From NCBI GenBank assembly GCA_964601305.1, contig CAZRMW010000007.1:1-44535 (forward strand): a stretch of DNA of 44,535 nt, read 5' to 3'. Below, piece after piece: positions 3,935 through 27,365 of this stretch (the first letter of the stretch is position 1; the number at the start of each line of letters is the position of its first letter). A program made the translations under genes and the position numbers. Below the pieces are notes generated by a model, which saw only the letters and a list, made by a program, of their open reading frames with translations, ran no database searches and was not told where the DNA came from. This DNA comes from an uncultured Candidatus Saccharibacteria bacterium (GTDB lineage: Bacteria > Patescibacteriota > Minisyncoccia > JAHISW01 > Tagabacteraceae).

Positions 3935-5666
3935 ACAACTGAAAGAATTTTTATTGGATTCTGGCTTGGTCTCTGAAGATATTATTGAAAAGTTTGAAAA
4001 AAGAGCAGTAGAAGAAAAGGTAGAGCTTAGCGACTTGCTTGTAAAGGAAGGAAAACTTTCCGAAGATGATTTAGGGCGTTTACAGGCCTATGTTTTAGGT
4101 ATTCCTTTTGTAAATTTAGAAAAAGAAAAAATAGATTTTAAGGTTTTATCTTATATTCCAGAACCTATAGCAAGATCTTATAATGTTGTCGCTTTTGGTA
4201 AGTCTGGCGATCAGCTTGAAGTAGCAATGTTGGATCCACAAAACCTGGAGGCTATAGATTTTGTAAAAAAGAAGTCTAATTTAAAAATTTTACCTAGGCT
4301 TACAAACAAAGAGTCTATAACGGCAGTTTTAAAACAATACCACAAAAGCCTTGAAGTGGAGTTTGGTGACATTATAAAAAAAGAATCAGCCGAAATAAAA
4401 GTTTTAAGTGAAAAAGATGAAAAGGGCAAGCCTGGCAATCTTAAAAAAATAGCCGAAGAATTGCCGGTTGTGAGGATTGTAGACACTTTGCTCAGGCATG
4501 CCATTATTCAAAGAGCAAGTGATATACACATAGAACCTGTTGAGAAGCAATTGATAGTTCGTTATAGAATAGATGGAATTTTGCACGATGCTATGAATTT
4601 GCCTATAGATATTGCAGATGCGGTGGTAGCTAGGGTAAAAATTCTTTCAAAATTAAAATTAGACGAAAAAAGATTACCACAAGATGGTAGATTTAAAACA
4701 GAAACAGATGGTGAAAAAGTTTCTTTTCGTGTTTCTGTTTTGCCAGTTTATGGTGGAGAAAAAATTGTAATGAGGCTTCTTCGAGAAAATTCCAAGGGGT
4801 TTTCTTTGGAGACGCTTGGTTTTCATGGGGAACAGCTCGAAGCAGTGCACAAAGCTATAAAGCGACCACATGGCATGATATTGGCCACAGGGCCAACTGG
4901 TTGTGGTAAAACAACGACTCTTTACACTGTTTTAGATATTTTAAATACACCAGGGGTAAATATTTCTACTATCGAAGACCCTGTGGAGTATCAAATTCCG
5001 AGAATAAATCAAACACAAGTAAAGCCAGACATCGGGTTTACTTTTGCCAGCGGACTTCGATCGTTGGTGAGGCAAGATCCGGATATAATAATGGTAGGGG
5101 AGATACGAGACAGTGAGACTGCGAGCTTGGCGGTAAACGCAGCGCTTACAGGGCATTTAGTACTTTCTACTCTTCATACTAATTCTGCGGCAGGGGCGCT
5201 TCCAAGGCTTTTGGATATGGGTGTTGAGCCTTTTCTTTTGGCTTCTACACTAAACACTGTTATTGCGCAGAGATTGGTTAGGCAGCTTTATACAAACAAA
5301 GAAGCTTACAAGCTTAGCAAAGAAGATTTGGCAAAACTTGCCGAAGAAATAGACCTAGAGAGACTTTTAGATATTTTGAAAAAACTAAAAGCAGTGAAGA
5401 CTGATGCTACATGGGAAAACATAAATTTTTACAAGCCAGTACCAAGTAATGAAAATCCAGATGGATATAAGAGTAGGGTAGGTATTCATGAGGTGCTAAC
5501 TATTTCAGAAACTATAAAAGAATTAATTGTAAAAAATGCTACTGCTGATGTTGTAGAAGAGCAGGCTAAAAAAGAAGGGATGCTTACAATGTTTGAAGAT
5601 GGCATATTAAAATGCATTCAAGGGCTTACAAGCCTCGAAGAAATCTTTAGAGTAACCAGGGAGTAA
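3918..5666 (+). CDS. pilB: Type IV pilus assembly ATPase PilB / GspE family
   Basis: ASDIHIEP, RLPQDGRF, Walker A GPTGCGKTTT, IEDPVEY, RQDPDIIMVGEIRD, LSTLHTN. Confidence 0.95.
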   Translation: MKVRPEQLKEFLLDSGLVSEDIIEKFEKRAVEEKVELSDLLVKEGKLSEDDLGRLQAYVLGIPFVNLEKEKIDFKVLSYIPEPIARSYNVVAFGKSGDQLEVAMLDPQNLEAIDFVKKKSNLKILPRLTNKESITAVLKQYHKSLEVEFGDIIKKESAEIKVLSEKDEKGKPGNLKKIAEELPVVRIVDTLLRHAIIQRASDIHIEPVEKQLIVRYRIDGILHDAMNLPIDIADAVVARVKILSKLKLDEKRLPQDGRFKTETDGEKVSFRVSVLPVYGGEKIVMRLLRENSKGFSLETLGFHGEQLEAVHKAIKRPHGMILATGPTGCGKTTTLYTVLDILNTPGVNISTIEDPVEYQIPRINQTQVKPDIGFTFASGLRSLVRQDPDIIMVGEIRDSETASLAVNAALTGHLVLSTLHTNSAAGALPRLLDMGVEPFLLASTLNTVIAQRLVRQLYTNKEAYKLSKEDLAKLAEEIDLERLLDILKKLKAVKTDATWENINFYKPVPSNENPDGYKSRVGIHEVLTISETIKELIVKNATADVVEEQAKKEGMLTMFEDGILKCIQGLTSLEEIFRVTRE

Positions 5667-6640: not shown

Positions 6641-6671
6641 GGAGAACTTTAGAGTAAAGAGGGAGTAAAAC

Positions 6672-6709
6672 TACCATAGAGTTATAGCTATCGCCTCAAT
6701 TCTATGGTG
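6672..6709 (+). repeat. 38-bp hairpin repeat, copy 1 (copy 2 at 27298-27335)
   Basis: TACCATAGAGTTATAGCTATCGCCTCAATTCTATGGTG; 35/38 identical to copy 2; followed by T run. Confidence 0.85.
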
Positions 6710-6827
6710 GTTTTTTTAACGGCTCATTTGAGTGAGCCGTTAGATTTGTTTGACAAGGTGGCAAAACAATGGTATCTTGTTTTTAGTTTGAAAATTTTAA
6801 TATATAGGCAAACAGGAAGGAGGAAAA

Positions 6828-20668: not shown

Positions 20669-20766
20669 TATATATATTATATCTCTTTCGCATTTAAAAA
20701 TAAAATGCTATAAGCAAGTAAGATACAAATTTCTTTGACACTAAACTTTTAAAGTCGTGTGAAGAG

Positions 20767-21186
20767 GTGAAAATAATGTTGTGGCTAAAAACTTTTGTTG
20801 TTGCTTCTGGATTTTCTTTTGCAGGTGTATTTTTTACTTTAATAATGTTTTGGTTTTTAGATAATAAGACATCAAAAGTAATTAGTTTATTTGGTTATTC
20901 TTGGCAGTTTTCTTCTTTATCTTCTTTTGCTGTTGGAATGACTCTTGTGTGCTCGCCAGGGATTTTATTATGCAATTACTTTGTTTTTATTTTGTATACA
21001 AATGGCTACGAATGGCTAGGGGATGGTGCAAAAGTTTGGCCTGTCCAACTAGTTATGCGTGCCGCAGCTGTTTTTACATTTTTCATAACCACATGGTTGT
21101 ATAGAGGAGAGTTACCTCAAAATGGATCTTGGGTAGGTCTTGCGTTGGCTGTCTTGATAATCATAGCTTCTGTCACTTGGAAATAA
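20767..21186 (+). CDS. Hypothetical multi-TM membrane protein
   Basis: About four hydrophobic segments; GTG start. Confidence 0.6.
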   Translation: MKIMLWLKTFVVASGFSFAGVFFTLIMFWFLDNKTSKVISLFGYSWQFSSLSSFAVGMTLVCSPGILLCNYFVFILYTNGYEWLGDGAKVWPVQLVMRAAAVFTFFITTWLYRGELPQNGSWVGLALAVLIIIASVTWK

Positions 21187-21215
21187 AAACAAAAATTAAA
21201 ATAGGAGACAAGCTT

Positions 21216-21431
21216 ATGTCAGACACAAATGATTTACACACTGCCAGATGTCAGGCTATTTTTACTAAAGCAGAGGTCGCCAAGATTATGAGAGAAAAGT
21301 TTTCTAATCTTTTTGATCATGGGGGACATTGTTTCAAAATTTTAGAAAAACTTGCTTCCGGAGAAGAAGATATCGAATACGTTGTCACTGAAATACAAAA
21401 TAAAATACAAAAAATAGGATTTGAACAATAA
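21216..21431 (+). CDS. Small hypothetical protein
   Basis: SD AGGAG before ATG 21216; terminator-like hairpin 21443-21474 follows. Confidence 0.55.
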   Translation: MSDTNDLHTARCQAIFTKAEVAKIMREKFSNLFDHGGHCFKILEKLASGEEDIEYVVTEIQNKIQKIGFEQ

Positions 21432-21522
21432 AAAAAGTTAAAGCGTTGTGTTTCAAACGACACGGCGTTTTTTTGTTTTCATCCCTCTTTTTATGTATGT
21501 TATATCGTTATATTTATGTAAT

Positions 21523-21556
21523 TATCCAATTCTACGCGACCGCTTTATTTTGGATA
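21523..21556 (+). repeat. 34-bp site, left copy
   Basis: TATCCA-ATTCTA-CGCGACCGC-TTTATTT-TGGATA. Confidence 0.85.
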
Positions 21557-21588
21557 GTTTTTGTGGTACGGTAAAAGTACAATTAGAA

Positions 21589-22149
21589 ATGAAAAAAGAC
21601 ACAAAAATACTTGTTGGTAAAATTATATTGGCGACTATTGCAACTGCTGGTGTTTTGACTGTGGCAGTAGCAGCTCCAAATGCTGTTCAGTGCATAAAAA
21701 TGTTTTATCCAGATCAAAAAAGAAAATATAAAGTAAACCACCAAGTAAACAGAACGATAAAGAGATTAAAACAACAAGGATTGATAAAATTCGAAAAAAG
21801 AAACGATCAGAGCTTTGTAAGACTTACAGAAAAAGGAAAAGAGAGATTGTTAAAATATCAAATGCAAGAACTAGAAATAAAGAAACCGAAGAAGTGGGAC
21901 AAAAAATGGAGAGTAGTAATATTTGATATCAAAGAAAAAAGAAAACATATCAGAGAAGGATTAAGAAAGGAGTTAATAAGACTAAACTTTGTAAAACTAC
22001 AAAATAGTGTTTGGGTACACCCCTACAAATGCGATGAAATCATAGCAATGTTCAAAGCGCACTTCAAAATCGGCAAAGATGTCCTCTATATGACGGTTGA
22101 TACCATAGAGAATGATAAGTGGTTAAAAGAGGAGTTTAGATTGAGATAA
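21589..22149 (+). CDS. PaaX-like protein: wHTH plus Cas2-like ferredoxin-fold domain
   Basis: RLKQQGLI...VRLTEKGK (wHTH), WDKKWRVVIFDI, LQNSVW; start trimmed to MKKDTK. Confidence 0.85.
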   Translation: MKKDTKILVGKIILATIATAGVLTVAVAAPNAVQCIKMFYPDQKRKYKVNHQVNRTIKRLKQQGLIKFEKRNDQSFVRLTEKGKERLLKYQMQELEIKKPKKWDKKWRVVIFDIKEKRKHIREGLRKELIRLNFVKLQNSVWVHPYKCDEIIAMFKAHFKIGKDVLYMTVDTIENDKWLKEEFRLR

Positions 22150-22200
22150 TTTACCTAGTATTTAGTTTAGGAAAGTGTAGTAGTTGAGGTATTTTCTCAC

Positions 22201-22234
22201 TATCCATTTTTGTGCGGTCGCGGTTTTCTGGATA
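22201..22234 (-). repeat. 34-bp site, right copy (inverted)
   Basis: Reverse complement TATCCA-GAAAAC-CGCGACCGC-ACAAAAA-TGGATA. Confidence 0.85.
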
Positions 22235-22335
22235 GTATTTTATCTAATTTAATCTTAAATTGATTAAATTGAATTGATTTGAAGTTGTTCAAAATTACTG
22301 GTGTAAGTGTGAGTTTGGCCAAAATTTGAATACTA

Positions 22336-23526
22336 CTAATTAAACATCAACCACTCTGGTTTGAAGAGAAGGAGGAGACCAACAATAGTTATAAGTACTC
22401 CACCAACAAGAGCAGAGAATTGTGAATATTTTTTAGTAAACGCAAGAGTCCGCAAGGTAAACATGGCTACAAAAAATACTATTAAGTCGTCTAGCATAAA
22501 GATAAGTATATAAAGCAGTAGGTATGAGTAGTGTTGCAAACCAGAAAGATCGCTCAAACTAAGTACATTTGTATAAACAGCTGGAAGTCCAGCAGAGCAG
22601 ATGAGCTCTACAAGGTTTACTGCAAAAGCTAAGAGAATTATTCCCCCTAAGGCTAACCAAAACTGTTTTTGCTGAGAAATATCTTTTAATTTGTCAAAAA
22701 TTTTCTTCTGTCTTGGACTTTCAGATACTTCGCATACATCAGCTTTGTCTGTGAAATATTTTTTTAAGTAAAGTGTCCCGCTAAAAATGGCAACAAGACC
22801 AATAACAACTCGCACCCAAAATACAAAACCTAAAAATAAAAATAGGTTTAGCCATGCGGATAAAAACAAAAAGTATACAAATGCAGAGGCTACAATGAAG
22901 GCAGTTCCCAAAATCCACATTCTTTTTTTATCTTTCATCCCCAAAAGTAGGCTAATAAGAAATATTAGTACCCACATAGCGCAGGGATTAAAGCCATCTA
23001 TTCCAGCTATAACAACTGTAAGAAGAGGAAGGGAAATATTTTTGGTGTCTATTTCTCCAATAAAAGGAAGCGTCATTTTTTCAGGTATGTTTTGAGAAAT
23101 TTTGTTTGGATCTTCCTGGGGAATTTCTTTTACAATAAGTGGTGCTATAGGATCTGTATAGCTGGTTTTAGAAAAATGGTCTACAAGCTCTCGTATTCTT
23201 TGGCCGGTTGTTTCATCGGAGTGATAGCCAATAAAATATTCATTGCCGATCATAGTAAAAGGGATTCCAGAAATATTTATTCCTAGTGTTTGGGCAATTT
23301 GCTTGATGAGCTTTATGTTTTCGGGATTTTTAGAAATTTCAAACTCTTTTATCTCTATTTGGCTGCCCATTTCTTGCTTTAATTTTTCTAGGAAAACTTT
23401 TTCTTTAGCACAATGTGGACAAGTTTCAGATTCAAAAATATAAATTACCACTGGCTCGTTTGCCAAGGCAAGAGTGGGAATAAAAAACAAGGAAAATAAA
23501 ATTGTAGATAAAAACACTTTTTTCAT
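22336..23526 (-). CDS. Exported thioredoxin/glutaredoxin domain fused to CcdA/DsbD-like membrane domain
   Basis: Signal peptide, CPHC, DGFNPCAMWVL, ELICSAGLP, about six TM segments. Confidence 0.85.
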   Translation of the reverse strand: MKKVFLSTILFSLFFIPTLALANEPVVIYIFESETCPHCAKEKVFLEKLKQEMGSQIEIKEFEISKNPENIKLIKQIAQTLGINISGIPFTMIGNEYFIGYHSDETTGQRIRELVDHFSKTSYTDPIAPLIVKEIPQEDPNKISQNIPEKMTLPFIGEIDTKNISLPLLTVVIAGIDGFNPCAMWVLIFLISLLLGMKDKKRMWILGTAFIVASAFVYFLFLSAWLNLFLFLGFVFWVRVVIGLVAIFSGTLYLKKYFTDKADVCEVSESPRQKKIFDKLKDISQQKQFWLALGGIILLAFAVNLVELICSAGLPAVYTNVLSLSDLSGLQHYSYLLLYILIFMLDDLIVFFVAMFTLRTLAFTKKYSQFSALVGGVLITIVGLLLLFKPEWLMFN

Positions 23527-23596
23527 ATTGGTTGACTATTTATATAAAATTATATTAGTATAATAAGTATATTAATATATTAAGATAAAAACAACT

Positions 23597-27245: not shown

Positions 27246-27297
27246 ATTTTTTGTTTGGCTAGTTTTTTGAGGTCGTTCCTCCAAAACTACCAAAAAG

Positions 27298-27335
27298 TAC
27301 CATAGAGTTATAGCTATCGCTTCAACTGTATGGTG
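27298..27335 (+). repeat. 38-bp hairpin repeat, copy 2
   Basis: TACCATAGAGTTATAGCTATCGCTTCAACTGTATGGTG. Confidence 0.85.
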
Positions 27336-27365
27336 TTTTTATTTTTTTGTTTTATGCGCCCTGGT

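Follow-up and report, generated by a model that had tools for sequence, protein, structure and literature searches.

A winged-helix and Cas2-like protein gene of an ultra-small bacterium lies between two matching dyads that are probably its own binding sites

The window analysed here, a whole stretch of 44,535 nucleotides from an uncultured member of the Patescibacteria, contains a gene for a 186-aa protein at 21589..22149 on the plus strand, for which a Pfam PaaX_M match, an AlphaFold2 model and a structural match point to a winged helix followed by a Cas2-like domain, with no C-terminal PaaX ligand domain. The match to PaaX_M (PF20803, 'Cas2-like') covers residues 101-174 with 73.6 bits (cut-off 24, E-value 1.4e-20), and PaaX_M also scored above the cut-off in all six paralogues of the genome. 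The Pfam winged-helix matches were sub-threshold, the model for the N-terminal PaaX winged helix (PF07848) reaching 13.5 bits with a cut-off of 24.8, as was Pfam Cas2 (PF09827; 18.9 bits, cut-off 23.8). The AlphaFold2 model (pLDDT 84.8) has the topology of a canonical winged helix, with predicted helices at residues 4-20, 30-39 and 46-62, a wing at 66-79, and the Cas2-like domain at approximately 103-185. The sequence-only reading had described a single wHTH plus Cas2-like gene, and this agrees with the PaaX_M match and, for the winged helix, with the model. The hydrophobic N-terminus was considered as a membrane anchor and set aside, as residues 4-20 would form the first helix of the modelled winged helix. 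The top structural match was E. coli PaaX (8a39, E 3.2e-05), with Cas2 chains next (5zyf, 8ia4, 6jhz and 5xvn among the Foldseek matches; Cas2 fold matches at E 0.012-0.08), and a profile search of PDB sequences also gave 8a39 (E 0.0028), the alignment covering both the winged helix and the Cas2-like domain. Structure prediction of the homodimer gave scores of 0.20 and 0.21, where the mark is 0.42, and these count neither for nor against a dimer. All Cas2 signature residues, among them the Asp of the FDI motif, were invariant in 60/60 sequences; this signature was absent from E. coli PaaX in the alignment, and its invariance leaves room for an enzymatic role.

The surroundings of the gene are neither those of a CRISPR system nor those of a phenylacetate pathway. 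No match to Cas1 or to PaaX_C (PF08223) was found in the whole assembly (96.5% complete), there is no CRISPR-like array in the window, and no paa enzymes were found among the ten neighbouring ORFs, the neighbours being Fe-S/oxidoreductase subunits, a glutaredoxin-like membrane protein and a cyclophilin. The earlier statement that cas1, CRISPR arrays and paa genes are missing nearby is thus upheld within these bounds, and its inference that the protein is not a phenylacetate regulator is supported. The same findings support that it is not a CRISPR Cas2.

Two 34-bp dyads, neither with an assigned strand, bracket the gene. The upstream dyad, TATCCA-N7-GCGACCGC-N7-TGGATA (21523..21556), is the proposed operator and reads TATCCA ATTCTA CGCGACCGC TTTATTT TGGATA; the downstream dyad (22201..22234) has the same arms and core, the latter being GCGGTCGC on the plus strand, and its reverse complement reads TATCCA GAAAAC CGCGACCGC ACAAAAA TGGATA, which places the two cores in inverted orientation. 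The left site is separated by 32 bp from the ATG (21589) and the right site by 51 bp from the stop codon (22147-22149), exactly as had been reported. On its other side the downstream dyad faces the glutaredoxin-like gene (22336-23526), which is on the minus strand, so that the dyad lies where the ends of the two genes converge. Both sites are real and not due to chance: when the full pattern was searched with up to three mismatches, the only two matches in the window were the flanking sites, compared to 0.00 in 100 dinucleotide-preserving shuffles. With regard to their architecture, the identical 6-bp ends were described correctly for both sites, but the unequal N6/N7 spacers and 9-bp core of the sequence-only reading are better replaced by equal spacers of 7 bp and an 8-bp core. 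The ninth 'core' base, a C, is lost in both other genomic copies of the motif, which leaves an 8-bp near-palindrome (21536..21543 in the upstream dyad) that is asymmetric only at its central AC/GT step, and hence a near-perfect dyad of the form TATCCA-N7-GCG AC CGC-N7-TGGATA; each site, when read on the opposite strand, still fits the pattern with only three mismatches. The two additional copies, at C5:17979-18012 and C1:76516-76549 (one mismatch), also show that the site is not private to the flanks of this gene, and the spacers are not conserved among the four copies.

We expanded the search to the six paralogues in this 795-kb genome and to homologues elsewhere. Each of the six paralogues has its own pair of flanking dyads (6/6), in which the arms are private and the 8-bp core is shared; the core family RCKAYMGY is common to all six and to 54 homologous loci. 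Pairing was scored as the best 30-mer shared by the upstream and downstream flanks, with at least 24/30 identical positions, for the 78 usable loci out of 80 fetched. Paired dyads were detected at 67/78 of these and in 0/78 controls with mismatched upstream and downstream flanks, and 54/78 also passed a stricter test for core-type dyads on both sides. The centre of the upstream dyad is a median of 41 bp ahead of the start codon (53 homologous loci), and that of the downstream dyad a median of 37.5 bp past the stop codon (54 homologous loci). The complementarity of the two halves is 0.84-0.94 at positions 11-17 from the centre, high in the core, and 0.66-0.74 at positions 5-10, and these peaks at arms and core form the contact pattern expected of a protein dimer. 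None of the 80 homologous loci is accompanied by a conserved neighbouring gene, recombinase or other, and the module is therefore self-contained. The family consists of 6,481 clusters at 50% identity (E up to 0.001) and was present in 75/301 sampled genomes of the phylum, with 1-11 matches per genome; it is a large and apparently undescribed family of ultra-small bacteria, and no paper on the family or its layout was found among open-access papers and preprints. Two genomes with the family contained 34 and 11 dyads (controls 2 and 1), whereas samples of two genomes of the same class in which no family member was found contained 2 and 3 (controls 1 and 1).

The codon at 21943..21945 (plus strand) specifies Lys119, which belongs to the motif FDIKEKRK in helix 1 of the Cas2-like domain. 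This residue, column 128 of the alignment, co-varies with the outermost base of the core: Lys is paired with G in 22 of 23 cases and Arg with A in 28 of 37, giving z = 23.6 compared to shuffles. The tree requires a minimum of 15 changes for the residue and 14 for the base, and of six independent contrasts about 4.7 go in the same direction and 0 in the opposite one (p ~0.06). A natural swap is provided by paralogue P2, which has Arg and the core ACGACCGT, and its syntenic orthologue (G005:C14), which has Lys and the core GCGGTCGC, while the two proteins are 85% identical, have a nearly identical recognition helix and share the arms TGTATA/TATACA. No residue pattern common to the recognition helices of loci with TATCC arms was obvious. 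With paired sites recovered from the flanks of 6/6 paralogues and 67/78 homologous loci, and with residue and base co-varying, the earlier suggestion that the protein binds these ends is most likely correct.

We also compared the position of the upstream dyad with that of potential promoters. The hexamer TACAAT (21578..21583, plus strand), ending 5 nt before the ATG, is a putative -10 box of a leaderless-type promoter; a consensus promoter scan listed no site upstream of the gene. Of the 53 homologous loci used for this comparison and for the start-codon distances (L081 was left out), 34 have a TAnnnT hexamer whose first base is 16-10 nt ahead of the start codon, most commonly at -12. Enrichment of -10-like hexamers is restricted to the side of the upstream dyad that faces the gene (73 vs 41, 45 and 45 in the other three directions). 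No peak of antisense promoters was seen at a fixed offset from the downstream dyad. Relative to this putative leaderless promoter, the proximal arm of the upstream dyad would occupy positions of about -38 to -33, and since the dyad abuts or overlaps what is likely the gene's own promoter, protein bound there would repress the gene.

From this arrangement we consider the protein to be probably a truncated regulator of the PaaX type, acting as an autorepressor. It would bind its own 34-bp dyad as a dimer, with the two winged helices reading the outer TATCCA arms, the centres of which are 28 bp apart, and a central Cas2-like dimer reading the 8-bp core GCGACCGC, and the outcome at the apparently leaderless promoter would be repression rather than activation. 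The two other copies of the site, one preceding a small zinc-ribbon gene and one preceding rnhB, are probably also targets of this protein. The downstream dyad is part of the module, and might strengthen repression through looping, stop transcription from running into or out of the gene, or do both. Looping between the dyads may occur; the distance between them (60 loci, median 664.5 bp) gave no signal of helical phasing (maximum R 0.20, null 95% 0.30), a result that makes looping neither more nor less likely. In 21 of the 50 loci with a called next ORF (54 examined) the downstream dyad faces a convergent gene, and thus cannot be the operator of the next gene there. A plain autorepressor has no need of a site past its coding region, and nevertheless almost every locus has the downstream dyad.

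Dyads of this design are not confined to the flanks of the six genes, as the genome contains 59 in total, of which approximately 50 are non-cognate, and only 13 of these could be assigned by their arms to a resident paralogue. Ten of the 59 are located between convergent genes and five between divergent genes, the reverse of what is expected for promoter-bound operators. Many are near-perfect palindromes of 40 bp with A/T tracts alongside, both tracts being present at 14/50 non-cognate dyads and at 17/500 random positions; such A/T-flanked palindromes are more than a regulator model requires. Some dyads precede genes for DNA polymerase I, clamp-loader subunits, RNase HII, two tRNA synthetases and several peptidases. 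There are also recurrent classes of four to six similar copies each without a cognate gene in the genome, and several orphan classes are found at fixed distances from housekeeping genes, namely 64-66 bp before the genes for ArgRS, an esterase and PolA, and 163-164 bp before two peptidase genes. Orphan class H was linked by eye to paralogue P3, an assignment which failed when scored in a fixed register. The orphan site that precedes the zinc-ribbon gene was not matched by a comparable dyad at four of five orthologous loci of the same family, including the syntenic G007 locus, although this comparison has low power at approximately 50% protein identity, and the G006 locus contains a weak dyad centred on ACGATCGT.

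Alternatively, the dyads might function mainly as RNA hairpins or as transcription boundaries, either as bidirectional terminators or as protein-bound roadblocks, with the protein as a boundary or termination factor and not a promoter-level repressor. We consider this improbable. The distance of the downstream dyad from the stop codon, the ten dyads between convergent genes and the paired A- and T-tracts of the non-cognate dyads are as this model would have them, T-runs are more common at downstream than at upstream cognate dyads (17 vs 5, of 54 each), no other terminator-like hairpin follows the 186-aa gene, and the RNA stem-loop-binding winged helix of the Roquin ROQ domain is among the weaker fold matches. 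However, the dyads of this gene make poor hairpins (-7.1 and -11.6 kcal/mol), with 6-bp arms and non-complementary spacers, and 37/54 downstream dyads do not have a T-run. The complementarity likewise peaks at positions 11-17 instead of forming a continuous stem, and there is no sense-strand G-U bias (34 vs 50 upstream, 49 vs 38 downstream), albeit that this test is weak should folding be required of both strands. Dyad symmetry extends to the A/T tracts too, and these could just as well belong to the half-site read by the protein. A search of Rfam at gathering thresholds found no RNA family, either in the module or at the two loci with orphan sites.

RAYT genes lie between REP elements of their own, and the dispersed copies bring to mind a comparable palindrome-associated system, selfish or domesticated, in which the protein recognises dispersed palindromes and aids their persistence or spread, possibly as a Cas2-like nuclease. 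This is an unlikely reading, but one with several points of resemblance: each gene is flanked by cognate palindromes of a class of its own, with dispersed intergenic copies (59 dyads for six genes), there are recurrent classes without a cognate gene, many of the copies form near-perfect hairpins and bear A/T tracts at gene ends, the positions of the genes shift between genera, the family is patchy and multi-copy, and the Asp of Cas2 catalytic type is invariant together with its neighbours. Against it, the protein is unrelated to RAYT (TnpA_REP), and Pfam found in it no HUH-Y1 (IS200/IS605-like) or other known transposase or recombinase domain. Copy numbers are far lower, and small within each class, and several orphan classes stand at fixed distances before housekeeping genes. 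What is conserved, at least in class A, is arms and core while the spacers drift, which fits duplex binding by a dimer, and selection for binding, better than copying. Finally, there is no G-U strand bias, the empty loci examined lack a solo dyad, and the P2 orthologue is stable at its syntenic locus. An equally doubtful extension is that the proteins are not simple repressors but partners of the REP/RAYT kind built on the Cas2 fold, with the conserved acidic site cutting or processing the core, and such activity would account for a site on either side of the gene, for the orphan classes and for the frequent changes of position; in a milder version, the Cas2-like dimer would be a sequence-reading DNA 'ruler', and the proteins would be among the main transcription factors of many Patescibacteria.

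The sequence-only reading had also proposed a mobile or invertible element, i.e. a minimal cassette that is inverted or excised at two recombination sites with a directional core, in the manner of dif-like sites or invertible promoters. A single gene bracketed by two matching sites, with its cores inverted, is what such a cassette would look like, and the locus stands empty in three genomes of the same family. The two cores of the 54 loci, however, have no consistent relative orientation: they are direct at 26 loci, inverted at 15, both palindromic at 10 and mixed at 3. The symmetry of each site is broken by one base-pair step only, and this step alone could give a direction. No recombinase domain is present in the protein, and no recombinase is conserved nearby. 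In addition, contigs from four other sequencing runs, in which rare variants would be missed, did not contain an inversion or deletion joint at the sites (searched over 20800-23200); those of X2 and X4 span the sites in the arrangement of the window, while those of X7 and X8 cover short pieces only. We thus regard recombination at a directional core as highly improbable. The wider notion of mobility fared better in part, as most related copies are at non-orthologous places and modules change locus between genera, but the indel at this locus includes other DNA (20669-21522) and is not bounded by the dyads, and the empty loci examined (G005:C21, G003:C1, G000:C20 and G000:C11) contain no solo dyad. 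The G000:C8 and G004:C26 loci did not make a clean empty-site pair, with rearranged flanking genes.

Among known systems, the PaaX regulators of E. coli and Pseudomonas (8a39, with 3l09 and 3kfw as related structures) are the best match in both sequence and fold, having a winged helix followed by a Cas2-like middle domain. A review gives TGATTC-N27-GAATCA as the sequence bound by E. coli PaaX, which is a repressor of its own promoter (PMC9493321). The dyads described here, as putative operators, have a similar geometry, with widely spaced inverted 6-bp arms (N22, compared to N27 for E. coli, PMC9493321) beside a putative own promoter. Our protein differs in that it is shorter (186 aa vs 316), lacks the PaaX_C ligand domain and has no paa genes among its neighbours, while it retains the Cas2 signature FDI..E..R...LQ.SV. 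Furthermore, its sites have a conserved central core, and co-variation links this core to a residue in the Cas2-like domain. There is a site on each side of the gene, and several paralogues per small genome testify to an expansion of the family. The protein resembles CRISPR Cas2 in the signature residues and modelled fold of its C-terminal half, but the Pfam score is sub-threshold, the domain is fused to a winged helix, and neither a Cas1 (genome) nor an array (window) accompanies it. We know of no sequence-specific reading of duplex DNA by Cas2 proteins, and this is the activity of the Cas2-like domain to which the co-variation of residue and base points. Modules flanked by dif-like sites (pdif) and invertible switches resemble the locus in having a single gene between two similar short, dyad-armed sites, but in our case there are no 11-6-11 Xer-type half-sites, no fixed orientation, no conserved recombinase neighbour and no rearranged contig.

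Patescibacteria have tiny genomes, and to our knowledge little is known about gene regulation in these bacteria. If the autorepressor model is correct, part of the regulatory network of uncultured organisms would be readable from their sequence, because each protein adjoins its own site, and it would come with a simple recognition rule in which Lys or Arg at one position is paired with G or A at one base of the core. It would also provide an example of a Cas2-type domain which reads the sequence of duplex DNA, with a bearing on the relationships between Cas2, VapD-like proteins and PaaX, while the downstream site and the orphan palindrome classes leave room for a less ordinary mechanism. The layout itself, a gene between two copies of what is likely its own site, recurs throughout a large family of ultra-small bacteria.

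The sites around P1, the window gene (forward strand, 21589-22149; 186 codons, ATG at 21589, stop codon at 22147-22149), lie exactly where the sequence-only reading had placed them, as paired sites of one architecture on either side of a single gene. The left site, TATCCA-ATTCTA-CGCGACCGC-TTTATTT-TGGATA, spans 21523-21556 and ends 32 bp before the ATG, and the right site (22201-22234) has the same architecture in reverse complement and lies 51 bp after the stop codon. Allowing up to 3 mismatches, the pattern matched the window at these two places only, and gave no match in 100 dinucleotide-preserving shuffles of the window. On the opposite strand, too, the pattern fits either site with only 3 mismatches, and each is thus a near-perfect dyad (a two-fold-symmetric site), TATCCA-N7-GCG AC CGC-N7-TGGATA, so that the asymmetric 9-bp core described earlier reduces to an 8-bp near-palindrome in which the central AC/GT step is the sole real asymmetry. 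The whole assembly (794,649 bp in 42 contigs, 96.5% complete) contains the symmetric form in four places, the two flanking sites, C5:17979-18012 and C1:76516-76549 (one mismatch), while a control pattern was not matched in the same search. Short direct repeats with ATTGA follow one another directly after the downstream dyad (~22258-22290), and a 17-bp tandem repeat of 2.9 copies is found where the glutaredoxin-like gene starts (23537-23584).

In Pfam the window protein matched PaaX_M, the 'central Cas2-like domain', with 73.6 bits (cut-off 24), while the winged-helix families and Cas2 scored under the cut-off. In an AlphaFold2 model (pLDDT 84.8) made from 60 homologues, residues 4-79 show a canonical winged-helix topology and are joined through a linker helix to a ferredoxin-like domain (107-182). 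The top structural match of the model is Escherichia coli PaaX (8a39, E 3.2e-05), and next come the PaaX-like 3l09 and 3kfw, then several chains of Cas2; 8a39 also ranked first in a profile search of PDB sequences (E 0.0028), with an alignment covering both domains. Unlike PaaX, the window protein is without the C-terminal PaaX domain, and there was no match to PaaX_C in the assembly. The statement that no cas1, CRISPR array or paa genes are nearby held up: no Cas1 was found in the assembly and no array in the window, and the adjoining genes are unrelated housekeeping genes. Public gene calls give 186-, 218- and 233-aa versions of the protein, of which the longer two start upstream and cross the left dyad because the frame is also open ahead of the ATG (21448-21588); the alignment of the family speaks for the 186-aa start.

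The genome encodes six members of this winged-helix and Cas2-like family (P1-P6; identity to P1 100, 73, 42, 40, 36 and 36%), and all six have their own 34-44-bp dyad on both the upstream and the downstream side. The outer arms vary by paralogue (e.g. TATCCA, TGTATA, GGTAAC, TGGAACA and CCATCTCGTTAA), and one 8-bp core type, seen as GCGACCGC, ACGACCGT, GCGATAGC, GCTATAGC or GCTATCGC, is common to all. A scan of one genome per species gave 561 confirmed relatives, of which the best 80 loci were retained; by record title nearly all of these belong to Patescibacteria groups, with two labelled Gammaproteobacteria and two without a phylum. Paired dyads recur in these homologues: the best 30-mer common to both flanks had at least 24 matches in 67 of the 78 loci with enough flank, compared with 0/78 mismatched upstream/downstream pairs (maximum 23), and 54/78 loci passed the stricter test of core-type dyads on both sides. 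Median distances of the dyad centres are 37.5 bp past the stop codon on the downstream side (54 loci) and 41 bp ahead of the assigned start codon on the upstream side (53 loci, one skipped). The family is large, with 6,481 clusters found when E is at most 0.001, and is present in 75/301 sampled genomes of the phylum. Our searches of the literature on PaaX in Patescibacteria and on Cas2 with winged helices in the candidate phyla radiation returned no description of it, and those on Patescibacteria transcription factors with palindromic binding sites returned only other subjects, judged by titles and abstracts.

Of the 54 loci, 26 had direct and 15 inverted central dinucleotides at the two ends; in 10 both ends were palindromic, and 3 were mixed. 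The core is not directional, and the inverted arrangement in the window is therefore one of several rather than a property of the family. Among ACG..CGT cores the AC/GT step is far commoner than AT or GC (46 vs 8), as if one base-pair step were favoured for itself and not as a signal of polarity.

The modules do move. In G005 and G003, two genomes of the same family, the Fe-S and glutaredoxin-like genes that lie 1.67 kb apart in the window are separated by 116 and 72 bp with no dyad between them, and in G007, a third such genome, ~40 bp separate the glutaredoxin-like gene from an adjoining homologue (36% identity, E 1e-23) of the membrane ORF at 20767-21186, so that the module and 21187-21522 are present in the window and absent there. 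(This 139-aa membrane ORF overlaps a 100-aa ORF without Pfam match, 21129-21431, which ends at the strong terminator at 21440-21471.) Among seven P1/P2-like copies examined in three same-family genomes, a single one is syntenic with P2, another adjoins the orthologue of P5's neighbour gene, and five lie among orthologues of genes without a nearby family member in this genome. Given these non-orthologous copies and empty loci, the modules turn over and change place on a genus time scale together with both dyads; there is no conserved neighbour gene family, the largest recurring in 6/80 loci. There is no sign that the dyads themselves recombine: the empty loci checked contained no solo dyad, and contigs from four other sequencing runs showed neither inversion nor a rearrangement joint at the sites, with a 1,257-nt contig of the X2 run spanning both dyads unchanged and X4 contigs bridging each site. 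The mobility proposed earlier is thus partly supported, as a change of place between genera, but invertibility is not supported, and a recombination cassette is very improbable in view of the intact sites and the mixed core orientation.

Dyads of this design are dispersed through the genome. At least 6/7 arm positions match around 59 of its 321 core-type 8-mers, and 7/7 around 32, compared with 5 and 2 of 286 in a reversed-genome control and 1.8% and 0.15% of random centres. Simple ORF calls place 27 of the 59 between tandem genes, 10 between convergent and 5 between divergent ones; 2 are at contig edges, and 15 fall within called ORFs, some of them spurious. No gene family other than this one is recurrent next to the dyads. 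By their arms, 13 of the 50 non-cognate dyads (those not flanking a family gene) were assigned to a resident paralogue at the 99% null threshold, including two of class A, the P1 arm type: one precedes the near-consensus promoter (TTGACT-16-TATAAT) of a 91-aa zinc-ribbon gene by ~8 bp, the other lies 20 bp ahead of the rnhB start codon. The remaining 37 include recurrent classes of 4-6 copies without a cognate gene in the assembly, among them one with GTACAAA arms, the same as those of a family member's own site in another genome, G004. Some classes keep a fixed distance to the housekeeping genes that follow them, 64-66 bp to those for ArgRS, an esterase and DNA polymerase I, and 163-164 bp to two peptidase genes. 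That dyads and proteins together form a REP/RAYT-like, palindrome-associated system is an unlikely reading of this dispersal.

Several further dyads were recorded. Two in the window (6668-6713 and 27294-27339) share arms ACCATAGAGTT, core GCTATCGC, a preceding A-tract and a following 7-T run, and are followed by a 382-aa ORF without Pfam match (137 bp away) and by a Phd/YefM-like antitoxin gene (113 bp away); this class has two more copies, on contigs C6 and C9, and no family gene with matching arms in the assembly. Ahead of rnhB two unlike dyads stand side by side (C1:76516-76549 and 76562-76609; locus L004 ~1501-1595), the class-A copy, whose core is TCGACCGC, and one that is centred on GCGATAGC and has the arms AAACATCATACAT, followed by a bidirectional terminator-like hairpin. 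A 172-aa and a 287-aa ORF without Pfam matches (C13:7100-7950 and C4:58193-59426) have dyads of different arm classes on their two sides. A family member on G004:C16 (locus L187 ~3953-5142; core CCGGTCGG), adjoining the orthologue of P5's neighbour gene, has arms AAAAAGTACAAA, which are those of an orphan class with 5 copies in the window's genome. A short GTCGA-containing motif ~35-60 nt before the zinc-ribbon (CxxC) gene start (loci L101-L106), present in this genome and most of five same-family genomes compared (clear in four), may be a conserved 5' element.

Dyad-symmetric A/T tracts border many of the non-cognate dyads and could reflect terminator-like hairpins or a longer half-site read by the protein. 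A T-run accompanies 21 of the 50 non-cognate dyads and both tracts 14, compared with 98 and 17 of 500 random positions, 17 and 9 of 54 downstream cognate dyads, and 5 and 0 of 54 upstream ones. The next ORF past the downstream dyad is often convergent (21 of 50 loci with a called ORF; 29 co-directional), and this dyad thus belongs to the module and not to the neighbour gene. With one filter applied to four genomes, G028 and G139, of the same class and without family genes found, had 2 dyads in 340 kb and 3 in 390 kb scanned (control 1 each), whereas G092, with seven family genes, had 11 in 400 kb (control 1) and this genome, with six, had 34 in the whole assembly (control 2). Small as it is (two genomes vs two), this comparison argues against generic protein-independent terminators, and a terminator or boundary role for the dyads is unlikely, slightly more so than the REP/RAYT-like system.

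Half-to-half complementarity of the dyads peaks 11-17 positions from the centre (0.84-0.94), where TATCCA falls, is lower at 5-10 (0.66-0.74) and decays past 18, with no excess of G-U-compatible mismatches on the sense strand (34 vs 50 upstream; 49 vs 38 downstream). When mutual information was computed for each protein column against each half-site position, one pair was far above the rest (z = 23.6): column 128 (Lys119, in the motif FDIKEKRK of the first helix of the Cas2-like domain) and the outermost core base. With Lys this base is G in 22/23 rows, and with Arg (37 rows) it is A in 28, C in 4, G in 3 and unassigned in 2. On a tree built with column 128 removed, the residue shows a minimum of 15 changes and the base a minimum of 14; in six well-supported independent contrasts the base followed the residue in ~4.7 and never did the opposite (p ~0.06). 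P1 (Lys, GCGACCGC) and P2 (Arg, ACGACCGT), 73% identical, both obey this rule, with P6 (Arg, GCTATAGC) an exception. The syntenic P2 orthologue of G005 (85% identical, outside the co-variation data set) has Lys with core GCGGTCGC, while its TGTATA/TATACA arms are kept and its recognition helix is almost identical. This co-variation is the strongest evidence that the protein contacts the dyad centre through its Cas2-like domain.

The gene upstream of the module ends in a clear hairpin terminator (21440-21471), and the module therefore needs its own promoter, roughly within 21480-21588. The hexamer TACAAT (21578-21583), a putative -10 element, has its end 5 nt ahead of the ATG. Of 53 homologous loci, 34 have a TAnnnT hexamer that begins 16-10 nt ahead of the start codon, most commonly at -12, where it would be expected for leaderless transcripts, and counts at offsets 18-37 show an excess of these hexamers on the gene side of the upstream dyad alone (73 vs 41, 45 and 45 in the other three directions). 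A transcript starting at the ATG would place the proximal TGGATA arm at ~-38 to -33, and the distance from dyad to promoter, which varies (17-52 bp for most loci), fits occlusion better than it does activation. According to the review PMC9493321, E. coli PaaX binds TGATTC-N27-GAATCA and represses its own promoter. We consider it fairly probable that the window gene encodes a truncated PaaX-type dimeric regulator, whose winged helices would read the outer arms and whose Cas2-like dimer would read the core, and which on binding the upstream dyad would repress its own leaderless promoter and also act at further dyads in the genome.
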